Below are positions 29,234 to 63,190 of a stretch of DNA of 64,000 nucleotides, in pieces. Made by a program: the position numbers and the translations under genes. Below the pieces are notes generated by a model, which was not told the origin of the DNA, searched no databases, and saw only the letters and a program-made list of their open reading frames with translations. Numbering within the stretch: position 1 is the first letter of the stretch; the number at the start of each line of letters is the position of its first letter. Location: NCBI GenBank assembly GCA_964505555.1, contig CAZDIO010000102.1:13355-77354 (forward strand). The letters are read 5' to 3'. Source of the DNA: an uncultured Bdellovibrionales bacterium. GTDB lineage: Bacteria > Bdellovibrionota_C > UBA2361 > SZUA-149 > CAZDIO01.

Positions 29234-29307
29234 AACCACAGAGACACAGAGCCGCAGAGAAGATTAATAAAATCCCTTTCCTCTGTGTCTCTGCGCCTCT
29301 GTGGTTT
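29234..29307. repeat. Family B palindromic repeat, copy B1 (arms built from CCACAGAG/ACACAGAG/CCGCAGAG 8-nt units, AT-rich loop)
   Basis: Seen directly: aaccacagagacacagagccgcagagaag...cctctgtgtctctgcgcctctgtggttt. Second copy at 63097-63190. Confidence 0.85.
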
Positions 29308-29350
29308 AATAAAGAATCTTTAACTTAATGGCCGTGAGAATCCTCCTAAC

Positions 29351-29430
29351 GTTAGCTGTAACAAGAACCCCGGTCGTTGCGAGCCGGGAAACCTCCGCTC
29401 GCAACGACAGGGGTTCTTGTTACAGCTAAA
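29351..29430. repeat. Family C palindromic repeat, copy C1 (perfect ~35-bp stem containing the cgttgcgagc/gctcgcaacg core)
   Basis: ttagctgtaacaagaaccccggtcgttgcgagc cgggaaacctcc gctcgcaacgacaggggttcttgttacagctaa. Core shared with 56134-56235 and 59726-59782. Confidence 0.85.
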
Positions 29431-29822
29431 GTGGAATTGCTTTTAGTGTTTAAAATCTTATCGTGAGGACGCGTTGACTAGTGCTAGAACAACTCGAATG
29501 TTTAATTGCCGTGCATCGCGTTTTCCATCTCTGTTGCAGTATGTTCCAGATCTTGATTTAACGATTGGCCAAAGTTTGCAACTCCTGCCAAACAAACAAG
29601 CAACACAGAAGCTGCAAGTAGCAGATACTCAAGTAACGATGCTCCACGCTCGTTTTTTCGAATGTTCAATACCATAACCTCTCCTTTCCGGTGGCTAACC
29701 CCCTTCCAGCCTTATTATGCACGCGAATGCCTAAGGAATTAATCGAGAAATTATGGGAAAATCTTTAGATAAACTTGAAATCTTTGAATTGAGAAAAATA
29801 CTTAACTTACTGAAATAACTAG

Positions 29823-30071
29823 TTAATTACTCCAGTACTGCCCACCCTTTTTAGTAACTCCCCGCCTAAACTGCCAATCTTTCCATGCAAAGGCGAGAAA
29901 AAACATCCCAGATACAATAAACAAACTAGCAACCATAGCCGCAAGAATCCGTGGAAACTCAAGGATCAGTAACCCAAGTGCCACAAAACAAATTCCGAGG
30001 GTGAAAAACATTGAAGTCAGCCCACCCCAAAAATTTGATGCTCTTTGAAAAAACACAACTTGTCGAAACAT
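29823..30071 (-). CDS. Small two-TM membrane protein (hypothetical)
   Basis: 82 aa, two hydrophobic helices. Confidence 0.35.
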   Translation of the reverse strand: MFRQVVFFQRASNFWGGLTSMFFTLGICFVALGLLILEFPRILAAMVASLFIVSGMFFLAFAWKDWQFRRGVTKKGGQYWSN

Positions 30072-30336
30072 CTTTTTATCTCTTACGTAATTAATCTATT
30101 TGAAGTCTGCTATCATCTCGTAAGCACCCCTTGGAAGATAAGGACGTAAGCCAACTTTGGCAAGAGCCGCACCAAGAAAAGCTCTCTTCTGAAGATAGCT
30201 GGGCAAACAGCATTTGATAAAAACTATCGTCAAATACGGTAAATCCGTCGCTACCCCTTCCTGTAGTAGCACTGGGTGTAGATAGAGATACTATCAAAAA
30301 GGGGGGTAAGTGTCATTCCTACCCTTTGGGAATAAC

Positions 30337-30376
30337 AAAGAGGCAGTGGGGTAGCGTTCTACCCTACTGCCTCTTT
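30337..30376. terminator. Strong hairpin (18-bp stem, tetraloop) immediately 3' of the flagellin gene, T-run on + strand
   Basis: aaagaggcagtggggtag cgtt ctaccctactgcctcttt followed by aatagtctttttt. One G·U wobble in the stem. Confidence 0.55.
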
Positions 30377-30395
30377 AATAGTCTTTTTTAATTGT

Positions 30396-31259
30396 CTACT
30401 GCAGCAACGTCAACGCCAAGGCTGGCTGTTGATTTGCTTGTGCTAATACTGAAGCACTTGCTTGCTGGAGAATATTTAGTCGCGTAAGTTCCGCCGCTTC
30501 GAACGCTACGTCAACGTCACGGATTCGACTTTCTGCAGCGAGGAAGTTTTCTCGAGCCACTTGCAAGTTACTAATCGCCACATTCAGCCGACTCTCGGTA
30601 GAACCCAATGTTCCTCGAGACGCTGTCAAACTTCCGATGGCGAGGTTAATAGCATCAAGAGCTGATCGTGCAGAGATCTGAGATTCATTCGCCGTTGCCG
30701 CCAAGATCGAAAACAACGGTATAGAACTCCCCTCAACTGCCAACCCAATTGATGCCAAGGTAGCAGAAACTGCAGAGTAGGATACCTGTGAGGTAGTCTG
30801 CCCATCAAACCCTACCTGAAACACCGTCTGTGCTCCTCCAGAGAGAAGGTTTACACCGTTAAATTCAGTTGTTAAGGCGATTCGCTCAATTTCGCTTGAG
30901 AGCGCGAGAAACTCTAAATGCAACGCAGAACGTTGGGTGTTACTAAATACACCGTTGGCTGATTGTTCAGCAAGCTCTGCAAGCCTTGTTAATACGTTTC
31001 CGATCTGCTCCATCGCACCGTCAGTAATGGAGATCATCGAAACACCATCGCTTGCGTTTCGTATGGCGACAGTAGCTACTCGAGAATCTGAACGCAGCTG
31101 ATCGGCGATCGCAAGTCCAGCAGCATCGTCTGATGCTTTGGTAATTCGCAAACCGGACGACAACCGCTCATAGGCTTTCTGTAAACGATCCGTTGTTGAA
31201 CTTAAGTTTCTCTGCGCAGTAAGCGAGGAAACGTTAGTCCGTATATTAATTGTACCCAT
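30396..31259 (-). CDS. fliC: Flagellin (short, D0/D1 only)
   Basis: 287 aa. N-terminus NVSSLTAQRNLSSTTDRLQKAYERLSSGLRITKASDDAAGLAIADQL and C-terminus LNILQQASASVLAQANQQPALALTLLQ match the conserved flagellin N- and C-domains. Confidence 0.9.
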   Translation of the reverse strand: MGTINIRTNVSSLTAQRNLSSTTDRLQKAYERLSSGLRITKASDDAAGLAIADQLRSDSRVATVAIRNASDGVSMISITDGAMEQIGNVLTRLAELAEQSANGVFSNTQRSALHLEFLALSSEIERIALTTEFNGVNLLSGGAQTVFQVGFDGQTTSQVSYSAVSATLASIGLAVEGSSIPLFSILAATANESQISARSALDAINLAIGSLTASRGTLGSTESRLNVAISNLQVARENFLAAESRIRDVDVAFEAAELTRLNILQQASASVLAQANQQPALALTLLQ

Positions 31260-31427
31260 TTCTTACCCTCCTTGACACCCTTACACCTCCTCCGAGACCT
31301 CTACTACAACCGATACTGCTCCTAGGAACTCGATCCGTATCCAGCACGGAGATAGGTTTCAGCACTTTTGTGCATGTTAACCAATAAAACGCTCAAGATA
31401 TGTATCGCTAAACTGCTCTGACCAAAC

Positions 31428-31446
31428 AGCTACTACCGTAAGACTA
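31428..31446 (-). promoter_or_regulatory. Candidate sigma-54 (-24/-12) promoter upstream of flagellin
   Basis: On the minus strand, cTGGCACgagaaGTGCTa (TGGCAC-N5-xTGC), about 185 nt upstream of the flagellin ATG. Confidence 0.3.
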
Positions 31447-31485
31447 CTCCTAGCACTTCTCGTGCCAGGTTTTGTGATCAGCGTC

Positions 31486-32490
31486 TTAGGCGATATTTTG
31501 AAATGGAGTTTCCCGTTTGAGTGCGGCTCGAAGTTCTGCAACACGCGTCACATAAGCCCGAGTACTCGCGGGTAAGTGCGGTTCGATGCTTTCAAAGTTT
31601 GTCGGATCTTTTCCTAAACGAAGTGCCTTCGCTTGTGCTTTTGCAACATTTCCTTCACCTGCGTTAAAGGCAGCGATGGCAAGTTTTTCCAAATCGTCGG
31701 CACTTTTAGCCGGCACGGTTTTTAATCCCGGTCTTAAAAATGTTTCTCGACTAAAAATGTCGTGGAGTTTTCGTAAATACCCCACTCCTAAGTGTGCATT
31801 GAGTCGGGGATCAAAGGGATCATAACCTGCAGGCATTTTGTAACGAACAAGCATCTCACTTGCGGTTTGATCCAGAAGCTGAAATAGCCCCTTTGTTTCA
31901 TGACCATCTTTACTCACCACATGTGGCCTCAGTGATGACTCTGCTTTCGCAACCGCAATACTTAGCTCAGGATCTACACCATGGTACTTCCCTGCTGTCT
32001 TAATAATCTCCTTTATATCCTGACGAGAGTAATCGCTATAAGGCTTAATACTTGCTCGATCTGGGTACACCCTCTTAGCGCTTACAAAAAGTGGGGTGAT
32101 CGGCTTTTCTACTTTTTCTACCGCTGATATTTTTTTGACACTCTCGCTCACCGGATTGACACGGAGCGAGGCATGAATAACCCCACTACTTCCACTTCCA
32201 GAAACTGCAGTAGCGTTCTTTATTAAGGGAGGAAGGTCTGCTTCAAGCATACCGTGCTCTTTGGTGTTAAGATTAGAAACTATCTCACCTGAAGGATTTA
32301 TGGAGGGTGTAGCTTGCTTTAAGTCTTCAGAAGGAGTTGATTTTGCAGCACGCTTTTCAATATCTGAAAGGAGCTCAGAGAAATCCTTCTGATTTGAGCC
32401 ATGGGTGGCCGTATCATTACCGGAGCGACCCCTTGGGGAGTCGATCCTGTTTTGATTTTTCTCGTAGCCTACATTAAATATCGTTGTCAT
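31486..32490 (-). CDS. Lytic transglycosylase (SLT domain) with Ser/Pro-rich N-terminal region
   Basis: 334 aa. C-terminal half has the SLT motifs (ES...; GLFQLLDQTA; AYNAG-like AIAAFNAGEGNV). Directly upstream of flagellin on the same strand. Confidence 0.75.
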   Translation of the reverse strand: MTTIFNVGYEKNQNRIDSPRGRSGNDTATHGSNQKDFSELLSDIEKRAAKSTPSEDLKQATPSINPSGEIVSNLNTKEHGMLEADLPPLIKNATAVSGSGSSGVIHASLRVNPVSESVKKISAVEKVEKPITPLFVSAKRVYPDRASIKPYSDYSRQDIKEIIKTAGKYHGVDPELSIAVAKAESSLRPHVVSKDGHETKGLFQLLDQTASEMLVRYKMPAGYDPFDPRLNAHLGVGYLRKLHDIFSRETFLRPGLKTVPAKSADDLEKLAIAAFNAGEGNVAKAQAKALRLGKDPTNFESIEPHLPASTRAYVTRVAELRAALKRETPFQNIA

Positions 32491-32578
32491 CTGAACTAAT
32501 CCTTCACACTACTAGTGGAGTATTAAAGGATAAGCACGATCCATACCAAACACTTCCTACTAAAAAAGGCAGTTTAAT

Positions 32579-33031
32579 ATGTCACATCACACAGCTGCGA
32601 TTTACTGGAAAAGAGCTACCCCCACATTTACCTACGATGCATATAACCGCGATCATGAGTGGCGCTTTGATAACGGAGTAAAAATAGCGGCATCAGCAAC
32701 CCAAGCCTATCGGGGTAATCCCGCTAACATCGATCCTGAAGAGGCGTATGTCGCCTCACTCTCAAGTTGCCACATGCTGACCTTCTTGGCGTTGTGTTCA
32801 AGAGCAAAGTTCGTTGTTGATACGTACGAAGACACCGCCGAAGGATTATTAGAAAAAAACGCCGCAGGAAAATTAGCGATCACCAAAGTTGTTTTGCGAC
32901 CAAAGATCACCTTTAGTGGAGACAAAGTTCCAAATAGTGCGGAACTAGAGAATCTCCATCACCGCTCCCATGAAGAGTGCTTCATTGCAAATTCCGTCAA
33001 CACAGTGGTGAGTGTTGAGGAGGCTAGCTAG
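32579..33031 (+). CDS. OsmC/Ohr-family peroxiredoxin-like protein
   Basis: 150 aa. Conserved Cys-containing segment YVASLSSCHMLTFLALCS. Confidence 0.6.
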   Translation: MSHHTAAIYWKRATPTFTYDAYNRDHEWRFDNGVKIAASATQAYRGNPANIDPEEAYVASLSSCHMLTFLALCSRAKFVVDTYEDTAEGLLEKNAAGKLAITKVVLRPKITFSGDKVPNSAELENLHHRSHEECFIANSVNTVVSVEEAS

Positions 33032-33063
33032 AGTTGCTCTACGTAACTTCTGGTCAATTTGGA

Positions 33064-33126
33064 TTGAACACAGAGTTTCACAGGGTTACACAGAGTAAAG
33101 ATTTTAAAATTCAACTCTGTGTTCAA
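33064..33126. repeat. Family A palindromic repeat, copy A1 (right arm shortened)
   Basis: ttgaacacagagtttcacagggttacacagagt aaagattttaaaattca actctgtgttcaa. The right arm lacks the internal gtaaccctgtgaaactct present in other copies. Confidence 0.8.
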
Positions 33127-33171
33127 ATAAGATCGGAATGACCTTAGAGCTACCTTCATATTTCTTATTCA

Positions 33172-33408
33172 TTATATCCACTCTTTCATCAGTCGTTTGA
33201 TCTGACTCTGATACGGCACATTTTGTAGATCACATTTATGCCGAAACGCAGCAAGAAGGGTCTGGGGAATTTTTATACTAATGAGTTTACTCTTTTCTGG
33301 CCGTTCATTCATGAGCCGAAAATCTTCAAGAAAACGTGCTATTTCATCCGGAGAGAGCTTCTTTGAATGATGAAGATACTCTTTAGAAAAAAACTGAACA
33401 CTTTTCAT
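33172..33408 (-). CDS. BrnA-like ribbon-helix-helix antitoxin-family protein
   Basis: 78 aa. C-terminus ISIKIPQTLLAAFRHKCDLQNVPYQSQIKRLMKEWI resembles the BrnA/CopG-type RHH antitoxin C-terminus. Confidence 0.55.
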   Translation of the reverse strand: MKSVQFFSKEYLHHSKKLSPDEIARFLEDFRLMNERPEKSKLISIKIPQTLLAAFRHKCDLQNVPYQSQIKRLMKEWI

Positions 33409-33414
33409 CTCTTC

Positions 33415-33882: not shown

Positions 33883-33997
33883 GGTATATACTAGTATATA
33901 CCTAGAGCGTTATTAATACAATGCTTATTTTTTTGCTCCGTTATTTAGTTTAAATCCCATAACAAGGTAGCTGTACGGTATTTCATAAGGGGGTTTT

Positions 33998-34882: not shown

Positions 34883-35117
34883 CGCGGGAATGAATAGTAG
34901 TAAACCGGACCGTTTTAAGTTTGCAAGAACTTGTCTTTCTGTCGTTGCGATACCTAAAGTGGAACTGCTCTAGTCACATCTTATGAAAAATCAAAATTAC
35001 TTAATTACAGGAGACACATGTAGATAAAAAACAGCCATAACTATTAATGAAAGTTGATGATGTAAAGGTTACCAGTTACGAAAATTTTCGTAACCATAAT
35101 TTAGTAGGGGGAGATAT

Positions 35118-43550: not shown

Positions 43551-43717
43551 AAACCTCAAGAAACCTTAGACTTAGGGTCTTTAAGCCTTCGACTTAAACT
43601 ACACTTAGCCTTGCTCCTGCACTTGCTAAGTGTAGTTTAAGGAGAGGTCGAAGTGAAAGTCTAAGATAGTGTATAAAAACTTTCAGAGCCTTTGATTTAG
43701 AAGGTTTTGATACAGCG
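43551..43717. repeat. About 170-nt compound palindrome (nested stems) immediately downstream of hemB
   Basis: Outer arms ggctgtatcaaaacc ... ggttttgatacagcg. Inner stem cttcgacttaaactacacttagc ... gctaagtgtagtttaa..gtcgaag. Confidence 0.7.
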
Positions 43718-43781: not shown

Positions 43782-43869
43782 TGAACACAGAGTTTCACAG
43801 AGATCCACAGAGTAAAGAAAAAAGCTTTTAGATTTAACTCTGTGTAACCCTGTGAAACTCTGTGTTCAA
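43782..43869. repeat. Family A palindromic repeat, copy A2 (left arm variant agatc for ggtta)
   Basis: tgaacacagagtttcacagagatccacagagt aaagaaaaaagcttttagattta actctgtgtaaccctgtgaaactctgtgttcaa. Confidence 0.85.
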
Positions 43870-45390: not shown

Positions 45391-45479
45391 TTGAACACAG
45401 AGTTTCACAGGGTTACACAGAGTTTGAACTATCTTACTTATCCCACACTCTGTGTAACCCTGTGAAACTCTGTGTTCAA
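45391..45479. repeat. Family A palindromic repeat, copy A3 (followed by ccttccttttttgc extension)
   Basis: ttgaacacagagtttcacagggttacacagagt ttgaactatcttacttatcccac actctgtgtaaccctgtgaaactctgtgttcaa, then ccttccttttttgc. Confidence 0.9.
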
Positions 45480-45546
45480 CCTTCCTTTTTTGCTCAAAAA
45501 GTTTAAAAACATCTTTACTGCTATATCGAATAGTGATATTAATCTA

Positions 45547-45708
45547 GTGGTGATTCGATCGTACAAAAACATTGGCACACGTGATATTGCTGAGAATTCG
45601 AAAGCAGCGCGGCGACTGTTGCCGCAACCATTTAATGCTCAGTATCGCATTTGCTTTCTTTGGAATGGCATTGATGCTGACGCAGTTGAAATAGTGGATT
45701 ATCACTGA
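45547..45708 (+). pseudogene. higB: HigB-like toxin remnant (internally truncated RelE/ParE-superfamily killer protein)
   Basis: N-terminus VVIRSYKNIG... and C-terminus YRICFLWNGIDADAVEIVDYH match the HigB ends (…RVIFRFEDGDAYDVDYIDYH). The central ~40 residues are missing. The longer ORF from 45472 begins inside repeat A3. Confidence 0.5.
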
Positions 45709-45732
45709 GAGATTACAAAAAAGGGCTTCAGC

Positions 45733-46026
45733 ATGTTGAAACCTAGGCGTGTTATAGCAGTGCATCCTGGAGAGATGCTTGAAGAGGTTCTTAAACAGAA
45801 CAAGATTAGCCAATCTTCCCTTGCCGCTCATCTCGGAGTTACTCAAGCAAAGATCAACGAAATCTGTCGTGGTAAGCGAGGAGTGACGCCAGATATGGCG
45901 ATGAAGTTCGGTAAAGCTTTTGGACAGAGCCCAATGTTTTGGATAAATATCCAAAAAAATTGGGAGATGAGCCAGCTCGATGAATCTGATTACAAAGACA
46001 TACAACGGATAAAATGTCGTGCGTAG
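45733..46026 (+). CDS. higA: HigA-family antitoxin (XRE-type HTH)
   Basis: 97 aa. HPGEMLEEVLKQNKISQSSLAAHLGVTQAKINEICRGKRGVTPDMAMKFGKAFG matches the HigA/VapI HTH. Confidence 0.85.
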   Translation: MLKPRRVIAVHPGEMLEEVLKQNKISQSSLAAHLGVTQAKINEICRGKRGVTPDMAMKFGKAFGQSPMFWINIQKNWEMSQLDESDYKDIQRIKCRA

Positions 46027-46142
46027 AAAGCAAGTAAAAGGATTTTACTGGACTTCTGCTGATGCACGGCGACTGCATTTGCTCTCTATTTGAATCCCGA
46101 CTGAGGATCTGGAGAGTTTTATTAAATTACAGCTTATGATTA

Positions 46143-46232
46143 TTGAACACAGAGTTTCACAGGGTTACACAGAGTGTGGGAATAATTAAGATAATTTAAA
46201 CTCTGTGTAACCCTGTGAAACTCTGTGTTCAA
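46143..46232. repeat. Family A palindromic repeat, copy A4 (followed by ccttccctttttgc extension)
   Basis: ttgaacacagagtttcacagggttacacagagt gtgggaataattaagataatttaa actctgtgtaaccctgtgaaactctgtgttcaa, then ccttccctttttgc. Confidence 0.9.
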
Positions 46233-48409: not shown

Positions 48410-49333
48410 ATGAAAGAGAACGACAACAATACGTTTGTTGCTGTAATCAGAGCAAAACTTCAAGCAGGGGGGCGCACTCTCGCATCAACGGAAAATGCAC
48501 CACTGCATACACTACGATTTCGGATGATGGCAAATCAATTTCTCTCTATTCTTTCTTCGTTACTTTCTTTACATCTTACAAAGGAAGTTCATATCTCACT
48601 TGATGAGTCATCAACCTTTCCTCGATCACCTGAAGAGGGGTGCGATGGAGAACAGGTGATCGTGAATCTTCGAGTGTATCATCAAAATATACAACTTGTT
48701 TTACCCGGAGAGCTTGTTCATGACCTTGGTGCTTACGTCCTTCATAAGATGCCAACAGCGGTAATCTCTTCTCTCACGAACGAAGAGATTACCGCTGTGA
48801 GTTTCTTAATCGCTTCAGTCCTTGCTGATCGAGCGCTCTCGAAACAACGAATCTACCTCTCTTCAGTGCACAAAAAATGTAACGAAGAAAAACAAGAGAC
48901 CTCAAAACGCGATCGAGAACAAAATCAGCAACTCTGTGTATCAGCCACGGTTGATAAGAGTCACTACCGAGTGCTCGTACGTATCCCCGAGGAGCTTGTT
49001 GGGCGTTTAGAAAGTTATGGGAAATTAATCTTTCATAGGGAACAAACAACACGTCTTCTTTCAAGGGTGTTTGCGCAGTGGTCGCTGCAACTTCGACTCA
49101 ACGTAGGATCGCTTCACGGTCTTACTGCGCTAAAAGAAGGTCAACGTTTTCCACTTACAGAGTCTACGGGGGCACTTTTTTCTCCAAGCCCTCTCTGTGG
49201 TGAAGAAGGGGTAGCGGTTGAAATACTTTCTGCAAGTATTCCTGGACTTTTAAAATTACGAATTAGGGGAGAAAAAGATTTATATCAACGCACTCAATGG
49301 AGGAATAATGACCAGAGAAGATGCCCACAGTAA
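48410..49333 (+). CDS. sctQ: SctQ-like protein, N-terminal part of a split cytoplasmic-ring/sorting-platform protein (contains a SpoA-like C-terminal segment)
   Basis: 307 aa. C-terminal LQLRLNVGSLHGLTALKEGQRFPL...VAVEILSASIPGLLKLRI fits the SpoA/FliN-fold pattern. Overlaps the next SpoA gene by 26 nt. Confidence 0.45.
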   Translation: MKENDNNTFVAVIRAKLQAGGRTLASTENAPLHTLRFRMMANQFLSILSSLLSLHLTKEVHISLDESSTFPRSPEEGCDGEQVIVNLRVYHQNIQLVLPGELVHDLGAYVLHKMPTAVISSLTNEEITAVSFLIASVLADRALSKQRIYLSSVHKKCNEEKQETSKRDREQNQQLCVSATVDKSHYRVLVRIPEELVGRLESYGKLIFHREQTTRLLSRVFAQWSLQLRLNVGSLHGLTALKEGQRFPLTESTGALFSPSPLCGEEGVAVEILSASIPGLLKLRIRGEKDLYQRTQWRNNDQRRCPQ

Positions 49334-50417: not shown

Positions 50418-50428
50418 TTTCTGATTCC

Positions 50429-52507
50429 ATGAGGCAGCACGCCAAAATACGCGATATTTTACTCCCTATCGCTGTTGTTGCGGTAGTAGGGATGATGATT
50501 TTTCCTTTACCATCAGGAGTGCTCGATGCGCTCCTGATGGTAAATATCGCGTTTTCTTTAGTTCTTCTGGTAAGTTCTGTTTATCTTTCTGAACCAAGAC
50601 ACTTTACCTCCCTTCCAGCGATCCTTCTCCTCTCCACTCTTTTTCGCTTAGGATTAAACGTTTCAACAACACGACAGATTCTTGGTCATGCCGAGGCACC
50701 TGAGATTATTGTTGCCTTTGGTTCTTTTGTTGTAACTGGAAGTTTAATTGTCGGTGCGGTGGTATTTTTGATTATCACCGTAGTGCAGTTTCTAGTGATC
50801 ACCAAGGGGGCAGAGAGAGTTGCTGAGGTTGCCGCGAGATTTACCCTCGATGCGATGCCTGGAAAACAGATGGCGATTGATGCTGATGTGCGTTCAGGTT
50901 CCATTAGTGTTGAAGAGGCAAAGGAGCGAAGGCTTGAATTACAACAGGAATCAAAACTCTACGGTGCCCTTGATGGGGCGATGAAGTTTATCAAAGGGGA
51001 CGCAATTGCTGGTTTGATCATCATCGTTATTAATATCACCGCAGGCCTTGCTGTGGGGGTAACACAGATGGGGCTTAGTTTTTCAGAGGCTCTTCATAAG
51101 TACACCCTCTATACGATTGGTGATGGCCTTGTTTCACAACTTCCGGCACTTCTTGTCTCTGTGGCAGCGGGGATTGTAATTACCAGGGTTGAAAATAAAA
51201 GTGGGGCTTTTCTCGGAAGAGATATCTTTGTTCAACTCGGTGCAGAACCTCAAGCCGTGGCCACCAGTGGAGGAGTGCTTCTTCTTCTCTCACTTGTTCC
51301 TGCGTTGCCAGGAATTCCTTTTTTTGTTGTTGGGGTAATTCTTCTTTCTCTTGCAAGAAAGACAAGTCTTCGACAGAAAAGCTCTGAACAGGGAAGGACA
51401 GATTCAGAGTTTCGACCAAAGGTATTTTCTCCACTCGTTTTAGTTCTCTCCCCCGGAGCTGCCGTTCTTCTTCAACGGCTCGGCACCCTTCCCAAGGCGA
51501 TTCATCAATTACGAAGCGAGATGTTTCAAAAATGGGGGGTGATTGTTCCCGATGTCCAATTTGATCTAGAAAAAGGGGAGAGTGAGATCGCTCTCTGGGT
51601 TACTCTTCATGGAGTGCAAGTTGATTCGCTTCGTGGAGATGAAAAAGATTCTGGAGTTTTTGTTGAGAAAACTATTCAATGCTTACAACAGTCCATTGAA
51701 GCTCATCTTTCTGAACTCATCGATGATACGCAAACAAGAATGCTTCTTGAGGTTCATCAAAGCGTTGCCGAGGATCTGATCAATAGTGTCATTCCTGAGA
51801 TGTTGAGTATTACGGCGCTCACGACAATTCTTCGGCAGTTAGTTATTGAGGGGATCCATATTCGTCAGATGCGTTCGATCCTCCAAGCCGTAGCAGAATC
51901 TCATCTTCGCGAGCAGGAGATGAGCCTTTCACTCCCGAGTGCTTCCGGTGCAAATTCACAACGTCTGCAACTTTTAGGGAAGAAAGAAGGAGCGACAAGG
52001 CAAGGACGAGAGCTCCTTGCTGATGTGAGAATCTCTTTAAAGCGAGTTATTTCAAAACAGATCACGGATGATAATTGGAATTTACAAGCCTTCATCTGTG
52101 CGCCTCTTTTGGAACAGATATTTTCCTCTCCCGTTGCCCTTGGAGCGCCCATTGAACCGGGAATACGTGAAAGCATTTTGAATCAGATTAATAAAGCATT
52201 CTCTACACAAAATACCCCCACAAAAGTTCTCTTAACTTCTAAACAGTCACGAACAAATCTCTTCAACCTGATTCGTTTTGACTGTCCAATGGTCTCAGTT
52301 ATCGCAATTGATGAGCTGGCTCCTGAAGTGACGCTCAGTATTCTTGGGGAGATAAAATTAGAAACTGGAGAGACAGCAGACAGTGAGGAGCAGGAAGGGG
52401 GCAAGAGTAAGAAGATTCAGGAAGAGACTCAAGCTAAACCGGAGCGGAGAGTTTTTCGAAATGTTTCTGAAGTGAGAACAAAAGATTCTCAGAAGATCGC
52501 AGCATAA
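50429..52507 (+). CDS. sctV: Type III secretion export-gate protein SctV (LcrD/InvA/CdsV family; injectisome-type rather than FlhA)
   Basis: 692 aa. FLVITKGAERVAEVAARFTLDAMPGKQMAIDAD, AMKFIKGDAIAGLIIIVIN and TIGDGLVSQLPALL match the LcrD/YscV variants (SLDAMPGKQM, FVKGDAIAGLIII, GDGMVSQVPALL) more closely than the FlhA variants (VLDGMPGKQM, FVRGDAIAGILIM). Confidence 0.85.
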   Translation: MRQHAKIRDILLPIAVVAVVGMMIFPLPSGVLDALLMVNIAFSLVLLVSSVYLSEPRHFTSLPAILLLSTLFRLGLNVSTTRQILGHAEAPEIIVAFGSFVVTGSLIVGAVVFLIITVVQFLVITKGAERVAEVAARFTLDAMPGKQMAIDADVRSGSISVEEAKERRLELQQESKLYGALDGAMKFIKGDAIAGLIIIVINITAGLAVGVTQMGLSFSEALHKYTLYTIGDGLVSQLPALLVSVAAGIVITRVENKSGAFLGRDIFVQLGAEPQAVATSGGVLLLLSLVPALPGIPFFVVGVILLSLARKTSLRQKSSEQGRTDSEFRPKVFSPLVLVLSPGAAVLLQRLGTLPKAIHQLRSEMFQKWGVIVPDVQFDLEKGESEIALWVTLHGVQVDSLRGDEKDSGVFVEKTIQCLQQSIEAHLSELIDDTQTRMLLEVHQSVAEDLINSVIPEMLSITALTTILRQLVIEGIHIRQMRSILQAVAESHLREQEMSLSLPSASGANSQRLQLLGKKEGATRQGRELLADVRISLKRVISKQITDDNWNLQAFICAPLLEQIFSSPVALGAPIEPGIRESILNQINKAFSTQNTPTKVLLTSKQSRTNLFNLIRFDCPMVSVIAIDELAPEVTLSILGEIKLETGETADSEEQEGGKSKKIQEETQAKPERRVFRNVSEVRTKDSQKIAA

Positions 52508-53183: not shown

Positions 53184-53271
53184 TTGAACACAGAGTTTCA
53201 CAGGGTTACACAGAGTAAAGAGAAGAGATTTTAAATTTAACTCTGTGTAACCCTGTGAAACTCTGTGTTCA
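53184..53271. repeat. Family A palindromic repeat, copy A5
   Basis: ttgaacacagagtttcacagggttacacagagt aaagagaagagattttaaattta actctgtgtaaccctgtgaaactctgtgttca. Confidence 0.9.
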
Positions 53272-54337: not shown

Positions 54338-54379
54338 GTTAAATATTGATATGTTAAATGTTTGCGAGTGTTTTTAGGA

Positions 54380-54457
54380 TGAACACAGAGTTCAACAGAG
54401 GAAAGAAAACAAACCAATAATTTTAACTCTGTGAAACCCTGTGAAACTCTGTGTTCA
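54380..54457. repeat. Family A palindromic repeat, copy A6 (diverged)
   Basis: gaacacagagttcaacagagg aaagaaaacaaaccaataatttta actctgtgaaaccctgtgaaactctgtgttca. Confidence 0.75.
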
Positions 54458-54516
54458 TTATAAAGAAACTAATCAATACTTACGGAATCCTTTTTTGGGA
54501 ATGATGTTCAATCTGA

Positions 54517-56133: not shown

Positions 56134-56235
56134 CCTGTCGTTGCGAGCCGGGAGGCCCGGCCGCCGGGCGAAGCGAAGCAATCTCGTATTACCAATGAGG
56201 GTTCGAGATTGCTTCGCTTCGCTCGCAACGACAGG
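56134..56235. repeat. Family C palindromic repeat, copy C2 (outer cctgtcgttgcgagc/gctcgcaacgacagg arms enclosing nested inner hairpins)
   Basis: cctgtcgttgcgagc cgggaggcccgg ccgccgggcgaagcgaagcaatctcg...cgagattgcttcgcttc gctcgcaacgacagg. Confidence 0.85.
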
Positions 56236-56267: not shown

Positions 56268-57695
56268 TTACCGAAAGAACAAAAACAAAAGAAGGAAAGT
56301 TCCTCCGTTTACCAAAGCGTGAGCAAGCATTGGGGCGATTAGGGAATTTCTCCACTCTCGAAGGAACGCTAACATCATTCCCACGATAGTCAGCGGAACT
56401 ACTCCGATCGGGCCTTGGGGGTGAACTGCCGCAAATATTACGGCTGAGGCAAAGATTGAAAACCCTGCTCCAAAGTGGTCCCGCAGCCATGAATAGAGTG
56501 CACCCCGAAACATGAGTTCCTCAACAAATGGTGCGACTACCACCCCAAGTACCAGTATCAGGAACACTGTTTTATTATCTGCAGAAAGAAGCATCGGAAC
56601 TACCGGATGAGCTCCTTGGTTGAGGTCCACTCCAAGAGCTTCAAGAGCGAGTGAATAAGGAACGATGACAATGAAGATGATCGTCCATAACGCAAGATAG
56701 GAGATAACGGCAGTTCCCGCGTTTCCAAAAAACCATCGAATTCCGCCACAGGTAATTCCTAACATCTTTTTTATCTCTACCCATTGTACCTTAAAAAATT
56801 TGGGCCAAAGCACAAGTAAGGAGAGGCTTACAATACCTACAAGATTTACTAACAAGGGATCTACAGAGGGGTTTCTTACCGCTACAAACCTCAACCCCAC
56901 AGAGGCGATCAACATCCCAAGAAGATAGAGACAAAAGATCTCCAGTCCATAGGGAGAAACACCGGGGACCTGTTGAAACCGAAAGTGAAACTTTCCCCGA
57001 ATAAGCTGTATTCCAAGAATGAGCGCGGAGAGAAAACTTATTACGGCTAAAATAATAAAGATAAAAAGTGCAACGAAAACCTTCATAAAGGTGTAATTTG
57101 CCTCCTCATATAAAGAGGACTCAAGCGCAGACAGCGTTTCCTTTGTGTCTTTTGCCAGAGCTACAACATAGAGCTTTCCAAACCACCCCCAACTGTTTAC
57201 CGCAACGGTAGCTTCTGCTTCGCTGAGGGGTGTATCTTTTGTGAGTATTTCATTCTTTTTAGGATCGTTATTTTGGGATAATTTCCCTCTCAGTTCAGTT
57301 ACAACATCGGAGAGTCCGAAATACTTTGCAGCGATAATCTTTCTTATAAGCAATGCTTGAGCAGAGGCATTATCTGATTTGTTCAATGGAGATTCTGCGC
57401 GGAGGATAGATCGAAACATCTCTCGCGCTTGTGCGCTGACCTCTTTTACCTCCTCTGGGCTATCTGCGATCTCTGTGGGATTTGCTTCGATGTAGCGAAG
57501 TGCACCGATGACCAACTGGGTTTGAATGGTAAAGAGCTTGATCTCTAAATCAGTACGAAAATCAATGGTTTGCGAGGGATCAGGGAGCGTTTTTGGTGCG
57601 GGGGACTTTTGCCAGGAACTAACGATCGTTAGCCCAAGGAGCACAACAAATAGTGATAAAAAAAAATATCTTCTTTTCTTTTCCATAAAGAACAA
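56268..57695 (-). CDS. CPBP-family intramembrane glutamic endopeptidase (CAAX protease/Abi domain) with large N-terminal extracytoplasmic domain
   Basis: 475 aa. C-terminal EELMFRGALYSW...FAAVHPQ...HALVNG motifs (EExxxR, FxxxH, HxxxN). Confidence 0.75.
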   Translation of the reverse strand: MFFMEKKRRYFFLSLFVVLLGLTIVSSWQKSPAPKTLPDPSQTIDFRTDLEIKLFTIQTQLVIGALRYIEANPTEIADSPEEVKEVSAQAREMFRSILRAESPLNKSDNASAQALLIRKIIAAKYFGLSDVVTELRGKLSQNNDPKKNEILTKDTPLSEAEATVAVNSWGWFGKLYVVALAKDTKETLSALESSLYEEANYTFMKVFVALFIFIILAVISFLSALILGIQLIRGKFHFRFQQVPGVSPYGLEIFCLYLLGMLIASVGLRFVAVRNPSVDPLLVNLVGIVSLSLLVLWPKFFKVQWVEIKKMLGITCGGIRWFFGNAGTAVISYLALWTIIFIVIVPYSLALEALGVDLNQGAHPVVPMLLSADNKTVFLILVLGVVVAPFVEELMFRGALYSWLRDHFGAGFSIFASAVIFAAVHPQGPIGVVPLTIVGMMLAFLREWRNSLIAPMLAHALVNGGTFLLLFLFFR

Positions 57696-57768
57696 TGTGC
57701 ACTCTCTTCGTTTCGGATATATAACTGAGGAAACGTAACATTGTTTGTACGCGAATTAAAAGCTTATT

Positions 57769-58488: not shown

Positions 58489-59705
58489 GCAACACCTCTT
58501 TTCCCAAGCAAAAGTTAAAGATCTTAATTCTTGAAAACATTGATCATATCGCCTGTGTGCGGTTTCAAGAAGCGGGATACTCCCCAGAGGAGATAACTCG
58601 TTCTCTTAAAGAGGATGAGTTACTAGAGGCGATTGAAGATGCTCATGTTCTTTGCATCCGTTCAAAAACCAAGGTCACGAAGGAACATTTAAAAAAGGCA
58701 AAACGACTTCTGGTTATTGGGTGCTTTGGTGTGGGCACCAATCAGGTTGCAACCGAAGAGGCAACAAATCTAGGAATCCCAGTTTTTAATGCGCCCTACA
58801 GTAGCACACGAAGTGTTGCAGAACTTGCGATCGGATGTGTAATTATGCTTGCCCGGAATGCTTTTTCTGCAAGTGAAAAGATGCATCAGGGGATGTGGGA
58901 GAAGAGTTCCTCAGGATCCTATGAGGTCCGAGAAAAAGTTATCGGTATCGTTGGCTATGGTCATATCGGTCAACAGGTGGGGCTTCTTGCAGAAGCACTT
59001 GGTCTTCAGGTACTTTTTTATGACTCCATAAAGAAGCTCCCCCTTGGTCGGGCACGCCAGGTCTCCTCACTTCAGGAGTTATTAAAAGAATCAGATTTTG
59101 TATCGCTTCATGTGCCCGGGCTTTCTCGCGAACTTCTTGGGGCAAGTGAGCTCTCCTTAATGAAGCAAGGAAGTTATCTGTTGAACTTCTCTCGAGGAAA
59201 CACCGTATCTCTTGCCGCATTAAAAGAAGCTCTTCAATCGAACCACCTTGCAGGGGCAGCGATTGATGTTTACCCAAATGAACCAAAAACAAACAAAGAA
59301 CCGTTTCAGTGTGAACTTGCCACCCTCAATAACGTAATTCTTACTCCGCACATCGGAGGAAGTACGGAAGAAGCACAATATAAAATTGCGTTAGAGGTAA
59401 GTGCCTCTCTTCTTGGATATATTGAGTCAGGAGCTACAATGGGCGCAGTGAATTTTCCTCAAGTCAATCTTCCCCCATTTCCAAATTCCCACCGCATTCT
59501 CAATATTCACCGAAACGTTCCTGGGGTGTTGAGTGAGGTAAATAAAATCATCTCCGATCTTGGGGCGAATATAGATGCTCAACACCTCAGCACCTATAAA
59601 GAGATAGGGTATCTAATCATGGATATCAATAAAACACTCTCTGACGAAGTGAGGGAGAGTATCTCACGACTTGATAGCAATCTTAAAACGCGGGTGTTGT
59701 ACTAA
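58485..59705 (+). CDS. serA: D-3-phosphoglycerate dehydrogenase (2-hydroxyacid dehydrogenase + C-terminal ACT domain)
   Basis: 406 aa. GxGxxG (GIVGYGHIGQQVG), catalytic region HIGGST-E, and C-terminal ACT-like ~70 aa. Confidence 0.85.
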   Translation: MSNTSFPKQKLKILILENIDHIACVRFQEAGYSPEEITRSLKEDELLEAIEDAHVLCIRSKTKVTKEHLKKAKRLLVIGCFGVGTNQVATEEATNLGIPVFNAPYSSTRSVAELAIGCVIMLARNAFSASEKMHQGMWEKSSSGSYEVREKVIGIVGYGHIGQQVGLLAEALGLQVLFYDSIKKLPLGRARQVSSLQELLKESDFVSLHVPGLSRELLGASELSLMKQGSYLLNFSRGNTVSLAALKEALQSNHLAGAAIDVYPNEPKTNKEPFQCELATLNNVILTPHIGGSTEEAQYKIALEVSASLLGYIESGATMGAVNFPQVNLPPFPNSHRILNIHRNVPGVLSEVNKIISDLGANIDAQHLSTYKEIGYLIMDINKTLSDEVRESISRLDSNLKTRVLY

Positions 59706-59725
59706 CTGACCATCCCTTGGTCATT

Positions 59726-59782
59726 CCTGTTCCTACGACCCGAATATCCTGGATGATGCGCCCCTTCGCTCGCAACGACAGG
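59726..59782. repeat. Family C repeat, degenerate copy C3 (intact right arm cttcgctcgcaacgacagg, decayed left arm)
   Basis: cctgttcctacgacccgaa ... cttcgctcgcaacgacagg. The left arm has ~5 mismatches versus cctgtcgttgcgagccggg. Confidence 0.6.
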
Positions 59783-59979
59783 ATTCTTGCCACCCTTAAG
59801 GTAGAACACTCTAGTTTAGAAGCGAGCAGCGGTTTGACCCATATGGAGAGTTCTGTTACTTCGAGGGCACCTCGATGAGGTGTTGTTATCACTGGTTGTT
59901 CTTTTCATGATTCCAATTTTCTTTGGGTATTTGACTAAAGACATTCCCTTCCTTTCTTACGTTTCGCAAACGTTGGAGA

Positions 59980-60450
59980 GTGCGGGTATGTCTGTCTATG
60001 GGGGTTGAAGAAAGGAGGAGAAAGGCTGTGAATGTTTTAGCGTATGGGACGTTGATGTTTCCTGAAGTTATGGAAGCACTTACCGGGAAGCAGTTTCCCT
60101 CTGAAGCATATGAGCTGAAGGGGTTTGTGCGGAGAAGATTGATCGGCCAACTCTATCCAGGTCTTATAGAGAAGGTTGGAGAAACAGTTTGCTGTTCTCT
60201 CTATTTTGATATCGATCCAGCTTCGTTGCAAATTCTCGATCAGGCCGAAGATCAATGTTACGAACGTAGAATGATGGAGGTTGTTTCGGTATCAAGAGGA
60301 GCTCTCTCCGCGCGAGTCTACGTAATACCTCTGACACGTGCGCGCTTGTTGAGTGAGGAGAGGTGGGATCATGAAGCATTCAGAGAGAGGCACTTAACTG
60401 AGTATGTCATGCTGTGTAAGCAGCATCGACAGAGTCTGGGAAGTCAGTAA
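59980..60450 (+). CDS. Gamma-glutamyl cyclotransferase-like (AIG2/GGACT fold) protein
   Basis: 156 aa. VLAYGTLMFPEVM... (YGTL motif) and Glu-containing core. True start may be GTG near 60030. Confidence 0.65.
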   Translation: MRVCLSMGVEERRRKAVNVLAYGTLMFPEVMEALTGKQFPSEAYELKGFVRRRLIGQLYPGLIEKVGETVCCSLYFDIDPASLQILDQAEDQCYERRMMEVVSVSRGALSARVYVIPLTRARLLSEERWDHEAFRERHLTEYVMLCKQHRQSLGSQ

Positions 60451-60677
60451 AGGGTGCGGACGCTAGAGAGTTCTTGGTTTTAAGAAAGGAGGTTAAAACG
60501 AACCATCATAGCGCACTATCCGCACTTTATCTTCCATTTTATCTCTTACGTTTTTCATTCTATTGCTAGAAATTACGAATATCGTTTAAAAATATTTAAT
60601 GTTGTAAAGGGGTTTGGGCAGACTTCGAGAGGATAGGGGGTTTTACTTACAGCGCTTTTTTCAGTCTCGCCCAAAGG

Positions 60678-61130
60678 TTGCCGATACACCCATGGAGCTT
60701 CCATCATAGAGAGGGTTTCTTGGAAGAAAACGAAATAGCAAATTACACCGTACTAGTTGCAGAAGACGAGAGCATATCACTCTATGTTCTTGGAACTCTT
60801 GTCCAATGGGCGGGAGGCGTTCCGATTCTTGTGCGAGATGGAAAGGAGGCATGGGAGTATCTTGAAAGTGGTGCTTCCTGCGATGCGCTCCTTACCGATC
60901 TCAAAATGCCAAATATGAGTGGAGAAGAACTTATCGCAAAAATTCGAAAAACTCCCTCACTTGCAAAACTTCCAATTATTATTGTTTCTGGAGTCAATAA
61001 CGAAGAGGTTGCTCCCTATCTTAGTGACCCTCATACCGCATACTTAGAAAAACCTATCGACCACACCACCTTTAAACGTGTATTGTCAGAAATGACGCCG
61101 CTCAATCCCTTTCGACCGTTACATTCCTAG
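60678..61130 (+). CDS. Single-domain response regulator (CheY-like receiver)
   Basis: 150 aa. VLVAEDE..., phospho-acceptor region ALLTDLKMPNMSG, and PIIIVSG. Confidence 0.8.
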   Translation: MPIHPWSFHHREGFLEENEIANYTVLVAEDESISLYVLGTLVQWAGGVPILVRDGKEAWEYLESGASCDALLTDLKMPNMSGEELIAKIRKTPSLAKLPIIIVSGVNNEEVAPYLSDPHTAYLEKPIDHTTFKRVLSEMTPLNPFRPLHS

Positions 61131-61169
61131 AAAGCGGCTCTCTGGTAAGTAAAACAATAGTTTTAGACA

Positions 61170-61649
61170 TTGATGAGAAACAATCTACCTACCTCCATTA
61201 TTTCTGGTCTTATCTGTGGAATAGTGGGTTTGTTTGCTGTGATGCATAGTGTCGGGATCGGCTTATTTTCGATGGGGTCCTTTCTCAAAGTCCCTGCGTA
61301 CTTACGGGTTATCGTTTCTCAAGCTAAAGAACCACTCGATGTTCAACTAGCTAAGAAGCTCAGTCGACGTGAAAATGTCGATTATCTTTCGCCTGTTCTC
61401 GCCCTTCGTGCTCTTTCTACAAATTGTATCGGTGTAACACAAAAGGCCCGCAGCGCTTTAGAAGAGGAACTCTATTTTTATCGTTATTTCTTGATGGAGA
61501 AGCAATTAGTTTTTACAGAAACGTATGTTGAAGATCAATTGCTTCCATGTTCTCATTTTATTTTAACCACGAAAGAGGCAGCAAATTACGAAACTTCGCT
61601 AAAGACTCTGCAGATATTAACTACATCACTTCGATTATATCAGAGATGA
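61170..61649 (+). CDS. Hypothetical protein with N-terminal TM
   Basis: 159 aa. Stop overlaps the next gene start (ATGA). Confidence 0.35.
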   Translation: MMRNNLPTSIISGLICGIVGLFAVMHSVGIGLFSMGSFLKVPAYLRVIVSQAKEPLDVQLAKKLSRRENVDYLSPVLALRALSTNCIGVTQKARSALEEELYFYRYFLMEKQLVFTETYVEDQLLPCSHFILTTKEAANYETSLKTLQILTTSLRLYQR

Positions 61650-63070
61650 AGATCGTTATTCTTCTAAGTTTTTTTCTTCCAGGTTTAGTGCTCTTCTACG
61701 GCGCACGCATTGATTTCGTGTTGAAGGTTCTTTTTGCTCTCGTCTACTCAATGGGAATTACCGTGCTTCTGTATTTAACAATTCTTGTTATCTCACCAGC
61801 ACCGATCGGGACAAACCTCACACTGACAATGCTTTTTGGGATAATGCTTAGTATTTACCTGCGAACAGCTGTTTTTTCCGAAGTAAAGAGAGAACATTTC
61901 CCGGATAATAAGAATCATCAAACGATAAAAAATATTGTGTTTGGATGCTCTTGTCTTCTTTTAGGTGTTCACCTGCTTTCAACACTTGCTGCAATCAAGA
62001 TCTCACCAGGAGTTGAGTGGGATGAGTTTGTTATTTGGAATATTCGGGGAAGGAGTATCTTCCAAACACAATCGTTAGCCGCAAATGTAAACTTCTTAGA
62101 TTATCCAGGATACCCCCCTCTCTGGCCTGCTCTTCTTTCAATCTGTTGGTATTTTGATGAACATTGTACCTATTTTCTTTCCCCCATTCTTTTAATGTTT
62201 ACAGTGCTTTTCTGCCTGCGGTGGATGCAGGAGCGAAGTCGATCAACAGTATTTCAGTTTCTTCTTCTTGGGTTTGCTCCAATAGTATATGGGCACTTCT
62301 TTCTTTGGGGAAACTCCTATCAACTGTATATCCCGTATGCAAATGTATGTGCGGGATGTTTTTTTACGATCGGTGTTCTCTGCTCTCTCTCGTATCTAGA
62401 AACAAAAGCACCACACGAGCTACTTCTTGGAGCGCTGAACTTGGCAGTAACCGTGTTGGTTCGTCCAGAAAGTTTGATCCATGTGTTGATTTTTTTTGGA
62501 TTGTTTACCCCAGTTCTTGTCAAGACCTTTCAAAAAGCGGGGATGGGAAAAAAAATAATTACCAAACGGGTTGTTCAACTGTTTTGTCCTGCAGGTGGTT
62601 TTTGGATCGTCTGGTCGGGATATCGAACGCTTTTTAAACTTGAAAATATCGGAGATCGGTACTTACAACGAGGAATTTCAGAGACATTTGCCATGTCTCT
62701 ATCTGACATAGTGTTTAAAATAAAATCTATTTTTGCCTACAGTTTTACACCATCTCGGCTTATTACTCCTTTTGAAAAGGAATTTTGTTTTTTACTGTTT
62801 CTTGTTTTCTTTATCTTAGGAAGTGGGATGTATTTTGTGGCAAAAAAGAGAGCGATGTTTCCTTCGCTATTTTTAGGGGTGTTGGTTTTTCTGCAGATAA
62901 GTGCGGTAATGATGATCTACTTAGTAACTTCAAACGTTAAGCCAATTGATTGGTGGTTAGTAACAGGCTACTGGCGAATGACCGCTTCTTACATGCTCTT
63001 ACTTTTTGTTTTTCTCTTTGAAACAGCCAATGGGATATTTTCTAGAGTAGAACAACATCACGGCGATTAG
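61646..63070 (+). CDS. Polytopic membrane protein (GT-C-like glycosyltransferase candidate)
   Basis: About 474 aa from MKIVILLSFF. 12 or more TM. Followed by repeat B2. Confidence 0.4.
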   Translation: MKIVILLSFFLPGLVLFYGARIDFVLKVLFALVYSMGITVLLYLTILVISPAPIGTNLTLTMLFGIMLSIYLRTAVFSEVKREHFPDNKNHQTIKNIVFGCSCLLLGVHLLSTLAAIKISPGVEWDEFVIWNIRGRSIFQTQSLAANVNFLDYPGYPPLWPALLSICWYFDEHCTYFLSPILLMFTVLFCLRWMQERSRSTVFQFLLLGFAPIVYGHFFLWGNSYQLYIPYANVCAGCFFTIGVLCSLSYLETKAPHELLLGALNLAVTVLVRPESLIHVLIFFGLFTPVLVKTFQKAGMGKKIITKRVVQLFCPAGGFWIVWSGYRTLFKLENIGDRYLQRGISETFAMSLSDIVFKIKSIFAYSFTPSRLITPFEKEFCFLLFLVFFILGSGMYFVAKKRAMFPSLFLGVLVFLQISAVMMIYLVTSNVKPIDWWLVTGYWRMTASYMLLLFVFLFETANGIFSRVEQHHGD

Positions 63071-63096
63071 TTAGGGTTCTGGAAGAAAGATTATAA

Positions 63097-63190
63097 AACC
63101 ACAGAGACACAGAGTCGCAGAGAAGATCAACAAAATCCTTTTCTCCGTATTCTATCTCTGTGTCTCTGTGTCTCTGCGTCTCTGTGGTTT
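63097..63190. repeat. Family B palindromic repeat, copy B2 (one extra ctctgtgt unit)
   Basis: aaccacagagacacagagtcgcagagaag...tctatctctgtgtctctgtgtctctgcgtctctgtggttt. Confidence 0.85.

Follow-up and report, generated by a model that had tools for sequence, protein, structure and literature searches.

Prokaryotic repetitive extragenic palindromes (REPs) are split into two superfamilies, with a GTAG tag and with a CGTC tag (Di Nocera, De Gregorio & Rocco 2013, BMC Genomics 14:522; PMC3733652). As described there, a CGTC unit comprises a CGTC tag (often TGTC or CCTC), an 8–9-bp stem that starts with A-T at positions 1 and 2, a 4–5-nt loop, and a CCA tail. The units mostly form inverted dimers located between unidirectional or convergent open reading frames (ORFs), near their 3′ ends. 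They occur in five phyla, mainly in Alphaproteobacteria, without a dedicated transposase, and include dRS3 of Neisseria and RPE-4 and RPE-6 of Rickettsia. In the same text, hybrid dimers are mentioned, many REPs are argued to act as RNA, and no candidate for an enzyme that mobilises CGTC repeats is offered. Here, we analyse a stretch of 64,000 nt (the window) from contig CAZDIO010000102.1 of an uncultured Bdellovibrionales bacterium, in which two families of palindromic repeats, B (copies B1 and B2) and C (copies C1, C2, and C3), lie at gene ends. By its sequence features, family C files as a divergent REP-type dimer of the CGTC class. Family B is apparently an undescribed family of hairpins built from CACAGAG heptamers, and its core is found in many tailed phages.

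All five elements are real and far above chance at the positions read by a first-pass annotation of the window, except that B1 and B2 extend further than it stated. The 12-mer GCTCGCAACGAC, allowing at most one mismatch, occurs five times in the window (0.16 expected), and CACAGAGNCACAGAG occurs nine times (0.00 expected). CACAGAG occurs 44 times (7.2 expected); 32 of these are located within family B or within family A, a further set of hairpins in the window, and the other 12 are near chance. Folding energies, with z-scores against shuffled sequences, are −61.1 kcal/mol for B1 (z −8.7), −51.5 kcal/mol for B2 (z −6.8), −65.5 kcal/mol for C1 (z −12.1), and −73.0 kcal/mol for C2 (z −8.9). C3 is marginal (−21.2 kcal/mol, z −2.4), as expected of a decayed copy. 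Independent Logan contigs (SRR13076506/17) are 100% identical to window positions 29421–32430, indicating that the elements are not artefacts of assembly from collapsed reads. One of these contigs stops within the right arm of C1, indicating that the hairpin repeats break short-read assemblies.

C2 (56134–56235) is an inverted dimer with a TGTC tag, the outer stem GTTGCGAGC, the inner stem GCGAAGCAATC, and a loop. An additional GC-rich mini-hairpin (56149–56168) is present in its left arm only. C1 (29349–29432) has 36-nt arms that are 94% complementary, with 34 of 36 positions paired, so its stem is not the perfect one first described. In C1, a lineage-specific 18-bp outer stem surrounds a loop of 12 nt and the outer-stem core GGTCGTTGCGAGC/GCTCGCAACGACAGG, which is conserved. 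C1 lacks the inner GCGAAGCAATC stem and keeps the shared CCGGGA and the outer stem. A covariance model built from a multi-phylum C alignment scores C2 at 63.3 bits (E ~1e-14) and C1 at 32 bits, no better than generic hairpins such as those of family A. Because of these scores and because C2 has the inner stem that recurs in eight phyla, we take C2 to be the canonical architecture and C1 to be a truncated, internally deleted derivative, the reverse of the earlier view of C2 as a variant of C1.

C3 (59726–59782) starts 21 nt past the stop of a serA-like gene (59705). Its right arm is intact (CGCTCGCAACGACAGG), and its left arm, which starts with GGTCATTCC, matches at 12 of 17 positions. Together with the low z-score, this bears out its description as a decayed copy. 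The left half (GGTCATTCC...CCCGAAT, 59720–59760) resembles a decayed CGTC-1-type unit, and C3 may, with low confidence, be a hybrid dimer with a CGTC-1-like unit instead of a plain decayed C copy. C2 follows a minus-strand gene (56268–57695), with 32 nt between the stop and the element. Therefore, the earlier statement that the elements lie at the ends of plus-strand genes holds for B1, C1, C3, and B2 only.

Neither family is an invention of this genome: family C carries the tag and tail of CGTC REPs, the B core occurs in many phages, and both cores recur widely elsewhere, so that the earlier caveat that the elements might be confined to the window falls away. A scan of one genome per species with the pattern TCGTTGCGAGC-N(12-72)-GCTCGCAACGA yields at least 82 C loci, and the C counts below refer to the matches listed. 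They are distributed over at least eight phyla, with Alpha- and Gammaproteobacteria, Cyanobacteria, Chloroflexota, Abditibacteriota, Bacillota, Bacteroidota, and Planctomycetota represented. The hosts include Bradyrhizobium, Sphingomonas, Novosphingobium, Methylobacterium, Legionella and other Gammaproteobacteria, Nostoc, Anaerolineae, Abditibacteriales, Pelosinus, Hymenobacter, and a planctomycete. In several cases, many loci come from a single genome, and on one Novosphingobium megaplasmid there are 40 copies or more, none of them annotated. The longer repeats around the core differ between lineages, with a length of ~130 nt in Nostoc compared with ~77 nt in Sphingomonas mollis. In Legionella, it is part of a longer asymmetric unit with conserved flanks.

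The C consensus reads nCGTCGTTGCGAGCG-N-AGCGAAGCAATCCAG, loop, and inverse, and is far more conserved than the search pattern required. The 30-nt arm is nearly letter-identical across at least eight phyla. The inner stem GCGAAGCAATC, which the pattern does not demand, is present on both arms in 56 of the 82 loci. In an alignment of 44 sequences, the 30-bp stem is 95.8% paired and 12 pairs show two-sided changes, a result matched by 0 of 500 shuffles. The invariance of the outer helix arises partly from ascertainment by the search pattern; that of the inner helix does not. A scan of viral sequences with 8-nt C arms, the fifth base left free, returns mostly chance matches. By inspection, seven of the 120 loci listed are true C hairpins, and all seven sequences are of the GTCATTGCGAGC variant, suggesting that the A form is probably the commoner one.

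The intergenic C copies lie between convergent genes in 19 cases, between tandem genes in 23, and between divergent genes in three. They are usually within tens of nucleotides of an upstream stop, mostly ~30–120 nt; these contexts rest on crude ORF calls that overcall genic positions in high-GC loci. ORF clustering reveals no recurrent neighbouring protein beside the C copies of the 82 loci, only housekeeping or phage structural genes. For a Novosphingobium C copy, PLSDB contains no close homologue that could serve as an empty site. In a gammaproteobacterial metagenome-assembled genome (MAG), CAWASG01, several hairpin repeat families are densely clustered in each 8-kb locus (L012, L055, L059, L061, L064, L068, L071, L073, L081, L083, and L090).

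Family C resembles the CGTC REPs in several respects. The tag is CGTC in 44, TGTC in 20, and CCTC in four of the 82 loci, and the first two letters were free in the search. In 37 of 56 copies, GCAAT is succeeded by a CCA tail, which the search had left free as well. The widespread GTCATT variant of C has A-T as its first stem bases, all C copies listed are inverted dimers with the tags outward, and the two groups share the unidirectional or convergent 3′ context, the multi-phylum and alphaproteobacteria-rich distribution, and the lack of an associated transposase. The difference lies in the unit. Whereas a CGTC unit folds on itself into an 8–9-bp stem, a C unit forms ATTGC/GCAAT (5 bp) only, and the two units pair with each other. 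In accordance, the consensus C arm CGTCATTGCGAGCGTAGCGAAGCAATCCAG folds into a 5-bp outer stem plus 2 bp (−5.2 kcal/mol), and a CGTC-1-type unit from a phage locus (L160) forms 8 bp (−13.7 kcal/mol). The geometry of the C arm, tag plus 22 nt plus tail, is kept in the GTCATT variant.

The copies in the window depart further from the published unit. Their first stem positions are GT instead of AT, the tags are TGTC in C2 and GGTC in C1, and C2 has CTC in place of the CCA tail. In the supplement of PMC3733652, no C-type translation is found among the REP-encoded peptides. Family C thus files as a CGTC-tag/CCA-tail REP-type dimer and a divergent member of the superfamily, placed by tag, tail, and context, not by family consensus, with none of CGTC-1 to CGTC-4 assigned.

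B1 (29195–29335) is a foldback of ~141 nt that starts 10 nt past the stop of a gene for a futalosine-type UbiD decarboxylase (27422–29185, plus strand). Its outer AT-rich arms (ACGGCCATTAA.../...TTAATGGCCGT) enclose inner arms of three 8-nt units each (CCACAGAG A CACAGAG C CGCAGAG and the inverse). B2 (63060–63217) is ~90% identical to B1, has three units in the left arm and four in the right, and has a longer loop; its outer left arm overlaps the last codons and the stop (63068–63070) of the plus-strand ORF 61547–63070. The outer arms of both copies agree with the earlier description of a second, AT-rich inverted repeat around the units. A repeat finder aligns the left halves of B1 and B2 at 90% identity and the right halves at 89%. 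In the end-to-end alignment, the sole gap is a 20-nt insertion in B2, made up of 12 loop nucleotides and one ctctgtgt of the right arm. The single 8-nt unit by which the copies had been said to differ is thus there, as part of a larger indel that includes the 12 loop nucleotides. B1 and C1 lie side by side after the UbiD gene, as first reported, and the gene pair around them is convergent, with a Flp/Fap-like gene of 57 aa (29502–29675, minus strand) on the other side. No target-site duplications or flanking direct repeats are seen by eye at the four copies B1, B2, C1, and C2.

The B core was searched as CCACAGAG-N-CRCAGAG-N-CRCAGAG, i.e. as a CACAGAG triplet with an 8-nt period, and occurs at 79 IMG/VR loci. 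A strict inverted partner is located 63–146 nt away in 23 of them, and many of the remaining arms, in the printed sequences, appear to have a degenerate partner nearby. The viral contigs (G+C 41–70%) encode terminase, portal, and capsid proteins, indicating that they are genuine tailed phages. One locus (L145) is a prophage whose tape-measure protein is 92–93% identical to Magnetospirillum proteins. By crude gene calls, the B hairpins of phages occupy whole short intercistronic gaps and leave 4–26 nt to the ORFs on either side; in one case, 11 nt separate the hairpin from the preceding stop and 13 nt from the following start. In two phages that are ~78% identical, the orthologous B hairpin keeps all heptamers, and the spacers and the loop differ. 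In a more distant phage (L155), the hairpin is absent from the orthologous junction, and the gap is 16 nt versus ~140 nt. In 19 distinct strict B pairs, the bases next to the core complement each other without exception (A...T, 100%), the spacers are Watson-Crick in 47%, and the outer flanks are complementary in 37–58%, compared with 25% by chance.

Triplets with a 9-nt period (CCACAGAGGACACAGAGAACACAGAG) are even commoner, with at least 120 viral loci (IMG/VR L308–L386, e.g. L331, L339, and L325). Among the matches listed, an inverted partner is present within 200 nt in 17 of 152 arms, and a same-strand upstream stop within 40 nt in 62%. The orientation bias of single arms towards a downstream gene is weak (44% versus 31% in the control). 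Some of these arms abut an ATG and hold a Shine-Dalgarno-like GAGG, and several are then followed by a CTTAAAACTTAAAACT-like motif. In view of their sequence context, the 9-nt-period triplets may serve phages as an element of intercistronic expression. The 10-nt period of family A is rare among triplets; most of those that have it are microsatellite-like, and a few form hairpins. The suggestion that CACAGAG is a functional unit common to families A and B is supported, as unrelated phages keep the heptamer and vary the spacers, at periods of 8, 9, and 10 nt.

The B and C cores generally occur apart. The C loci (610 kb) contain no B units, and the B loci (720 kb) contain nothing of C beyond stray half-sites. 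In one locus (L114, 95–199), a CGTC-1-type REP unit (GTCATTCCCGCGAAAGCGGGAATCC) lies within the loop of a B-type hairpin, and in another (L135, ~6430–6520), a B-type arm is directly followed by half of a C-type unit. These nested and adjoining arrangements echo the B1/C1 pair and the insert of C2.

A BLAST search with a B hairpin against cultured phages returns no match, possibly through low-complexity masking. Searching the literature for DNA strings or translated peptides brings up nothing, no paper in the searched literature contains the B strings, and no B-type peptide is present in the supplement of PMC3733652. Because B has no GTAG or CGTC tag and its purine-rich arms cannot fold on themselves, it falls outside both published superfamilies. 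Family B is therefore apparently an undescribed family. Tentatively, and with the odds rather against it, B, with A as its 10-nt-period relative, might be a third prokaryotic palindromic superfamily beside GTAG and CGTC. Such a superfamily would be characterised by tandem-heptamer arms, would be common to bacteria of different phyla and many tailed phages, and would presumably have a recognising protein of its own. In phages, it would perhaps have been co-opted as an intercistronic expression element, as single arms with 8- and 9-nt periods are found between genes of the same direction, some of them next to a start codon.

Among the other described systems, the REPINs (REP doublets forming hairpins) with their REP-associated tyrosine transposases (RAYTs) are similar in consisting of two inverted REP-like units in one long hairpin (Bertels & Rainey 2011; REP and bacterial interspersed mosaic elements (BIMEs) of E. 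coli and Pseudomonas). They are also extragenic, multi-copy, without target-site duplications, and presumably mobilised in trans on single-stranded DNA. However, their 5′ tag is GTAG or GTGG, which B and C lack, and such systems have been characterised as confined to lineages and passed on vertically, in contrast to the B and C cores, which cross phyla. No RAYT gene is found in the window or beside the fetched copies (82 C and 79 B loci).

MITEs (miniature inverted-repeat transposable elements) such as Correia/NEMIS, ERIC, and Nezha, and the pneumococcal BOX elements, are likewise small non-coding repeats with inverted ends, often located at gene ends and sometimes co-transcribed. BOX elements vary in the number of internal modules, as B does with three or four heptamer units. 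By their general descriptions, with which the comparison was made rather than with their sequences, MITEs have target-site duplications and a parent insertion sequence, whereas B and C have neither a duplication nor a recognisable insertion sequence. By the same descriptions, the conserved part is terminal in MITEs, whereas it is internal in B and C, whose outer stems are lineage-specific. No transposase-bearing version of B or C is present in the fetched loci. Eukaryotic Foldback (FB) transposons have long inverted arms of short tandem units in variable number; they are far larger, and autonomous copies carry a transposase. They resemble B in their unit-built arms, an analogy only, from another domain of life.

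Intrinsic terminators and the intercistronic RNase III hairpins of phage T7 are stable stem-loops after or between coding regions, as B and C are. Unlike B and C, intrinsic terminators have a U-tract, much shorter loops (3–8 nt) and GC-rich stems, and no sequence conservation across phyla. A terminator scan flags none of B1, B2, C1, and C2, and reports only 59707–59723, a small hairpin beside C3, and 30337–30376. Integron attC sites have the order 5′ RYYYAAC ... GTTRRRY 3′ and are arrayed after cassettes. For C, they were rejected, as C has the two motifs the other way round (GTTGCGA ... TCGCAAC), its GTTGCGA deviates from GTTRRRY, and the copies are dispersed. A ribozyme or other known structured RNA has no support from Rfam: at the gathering score, there is no match in the window or in 14 representative B and C loci, and at E ≤ 5, there are meaningless matches to miRNA hairpins only.

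Given these comparisons, it is rather likely that B and C are non-autonomous REP/REPIN-like hairpin repeats, selfish or domesticated, that gather downstream of genes. The earlier likening of both families to REP/BIME-type palindromes of 3′ intergenic DNA is thus supported. This interpretation rests on their multiplicity, on conserved cores with free loops, and on compensatory pairing. It also draws on copies that are truncated (C1), decayed (C3), or nested (L114), on a site that lacks the element (L155), on the 3′ and convergent intergenic bias, and on the lack of target-site duplications and of a neighbouring transposase. The C element would be an inverted dimer of CGTC-tagged REP-type units, with the tags outward and the CCA-type tails towards the loop. 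The B element is a foldback; a lineage-specific AT-rich outer stem encloses its arms, in each of which CACAGAG heptamers recur three or four times in tandem with an 8-nt period. Copying would be done in trans, by an enzyme that acts on hairpins of single-stranded DNA; in the case of GTAG REPs, the enzyme is of the HUH-tyrosine RAYT type. The cores would spread horizontally between lineages, with phages as plausible carriers of B. Once transcribed, the 24–36-bp stems would probably serve as stem-loops at mRNA 3′ ends, where they could act as exonuclease barriers or as termination or processing sites without a U-tract.

Several observations weigh against this interpretation. No candidate for the mobilising enzyme is found beside the fetched loci; no linked transposase or RAYT is seen around the 82 C and 79 B loci, where the ORFs are all of the housekeeping or phage structural kind. 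For C, neither a transposition event nor a clean empty site is seen. Metagenome scans with the B loop and with a family A arm return zero matches, and look-ups of exact protein sequences bring up just two short Logan contigs. The search for UbiD homologues reveals no close relative of the source organism in the collections. The poor folding of a single C arm leaves it short of the 8–9-bp self-stem given in PMC3733652. That diverged phages retain B hairpins at orthologous sites speaks for a function and not for selfish spread alone, and is the strongest sign that B is not mere junk. Finally, folding energies of the plus and minus strands show no consistent bias.

Alternatively, the hairpins could be primarily functional RNA, i.e. 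3′-UTR stabilisers, terminators without a U-tract, or RNase III-type processing sites as in phage T7, known to a conserved host or phage factor, whose recognition would account for the conserved sequence, and multiplied by recruitment and not by selfish copying; we consider this unlikely. Such a role would fit the B hairpins that fill phage intergenic gaps, and the orthologous hairpin that retains its heptamers as the loop drifts. The position of most C copies, ~30–120 nt from upstream stops among the matches listed, would fit as well. Stems of 24–36 bp are long enough to be substrates of double-strand RNases, and an action of many REPs as RNA has been argued for in PMC3733652. However, the phage copies are split between about four in which the sense strand is favoured, four in which the antisense strand is favoured, and one tie, and in the window, the strands are equal or the order is reversed, so a purely RNA-level explanation is not supported. 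In addition, near-identical 30-nt arms in eight phyla require transfer or copying of DNA, decayed C3, nested L114, and truncated C1 look like the neutral decay of insertions, and no Rfam family matches.

It is distinctly improbable that the CACAGAG arrays of B and A are instead duplex-DNA sites for a sequence-specific protein (a regulator of phage or host, a nucleoid protein, or a transposase), paired arrays whose hairpin never forms. The conserved heptamer with varying spacer bases, the arrays at 8-, 9-, and 10-nt periods, and the 10-nt period of family A, one turn of B-DNA, would suit a protein that reads the duplex. The 9-nt-period arms would do so too, as few have an inverted partner, most of those listed lie near a same-strand stop, and some abut a start codon. 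However, B has a partner arm, an invariably complementary flanking A/T pair, and outer flanks that are in part complementary, and the lineage-specific outer stems lengthen the palindrome in the window, an argument that the pairing as such counts. Single arms show only the weak orientation bias noted above, and no candidate binding protein is linked to the 79 B loci. An origin from collapsed reads, chimeric assembly, or chance palindromes has next to no probability: the contig that ends within C1 does show that hairpins disturb assembly, but the Logan assemblies are identical in the flanking region, isolates from several phyla carry these cores in their genomes, and chance predicts 0.00–0.16 matches.

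The window has a G+C content of 41–46% and contains no tRNA genes. Beyond an identical sequence, the best homologues of its UbiD are only 67% identical, and the named ones come from Bdellovibrionota, Oligoflexia, or 'Deltaproteobacteria' MAGs. Cyanobacterial SDR, STRR, and Nezha elements were rejected, as the flagellin, the futalosine-pathway genes, and the UbiD homologues point to a Bdellovibrionota-like host. The flagellin gene (30396–31259, minus strand) encodes a short protein with a spirochaete-type match; a Leptospira origin, which this match had suggested, is not supported by the UbiD homologues. Directly after its stop, a perfect 18-bp hairpin (30337–30376) is preceded by an A-run and followed by a T-run. 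This is a classical bidirectional intrinsic terminator, indicating that terminators of the ordinary type, which B and C do not resemble, are in use in the organism. The gene upstream of C2 (56268–57695, minus strand) is CPBP-type protease-like, and the serA-like gene before C3 (58485–59705, plus strand) encodes a phosphoglycerate dehydrogenase.

A representative copy of family A (43782–43868) has three CACAGAG/CACAGGG heptamers in its arms, with a 10-nt period. The other copies are located at ~33064–33121 (decayed), 45391–45479, 46143–46232, 53185–53271, and 54379–54460. The hairpins at 45391–45479 and 46143–46232 flank a 660-nt segment. Its only long ORF (45544–46005, minus strand, 153 aa) has a TTG start, an atypical composition, and no Pfam match, and looks spurious. 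The whole region (45391–46232) could be a composite element or non-coding cargo. A structure-driven covariance model search reveals more stable hairpins at 50507–50543, 48755–48798, 43586–43648, 7566–7645, 26420–26461, and 61499–61545. The segments 3076–3167 and 17225–17316 are 72% identical over 92 nt and lie within two 367-aa ORFs (2866–3969 and 17015–18118), which are probably paralogous genes unrelated to the repeats.

Palindromic repeats fill a visible share of the intergenic DNA of the window, with ~11 elements in 64 kb when family A is included. Such hairpin repeats break short-read assemblies and yield spurious ORFs, and their recognition improves annotation. For the specialist, family C is ordinary, a somewhat aberrant member of a described class; truly new leads come only from B, with its tandem-heptamer arms and its spread in phages. 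With family C, a Bdellovibrionota-like lineage joins those known to carry CGTC-tagged REPs, and, as a variant in which the dimer folds and the unit does not, it bears on the means by which CGTC repeats multiply when no transposase is dedicated to them. Family B ties chromosomal repeats of bacteria to a motif common in uncultured tailed phages. Three CACAGAG heptamers at a fixed spacing offer a concrete handle on the protein that may bind or mobilise them, and on whether phages ferry such repeats between phyla.

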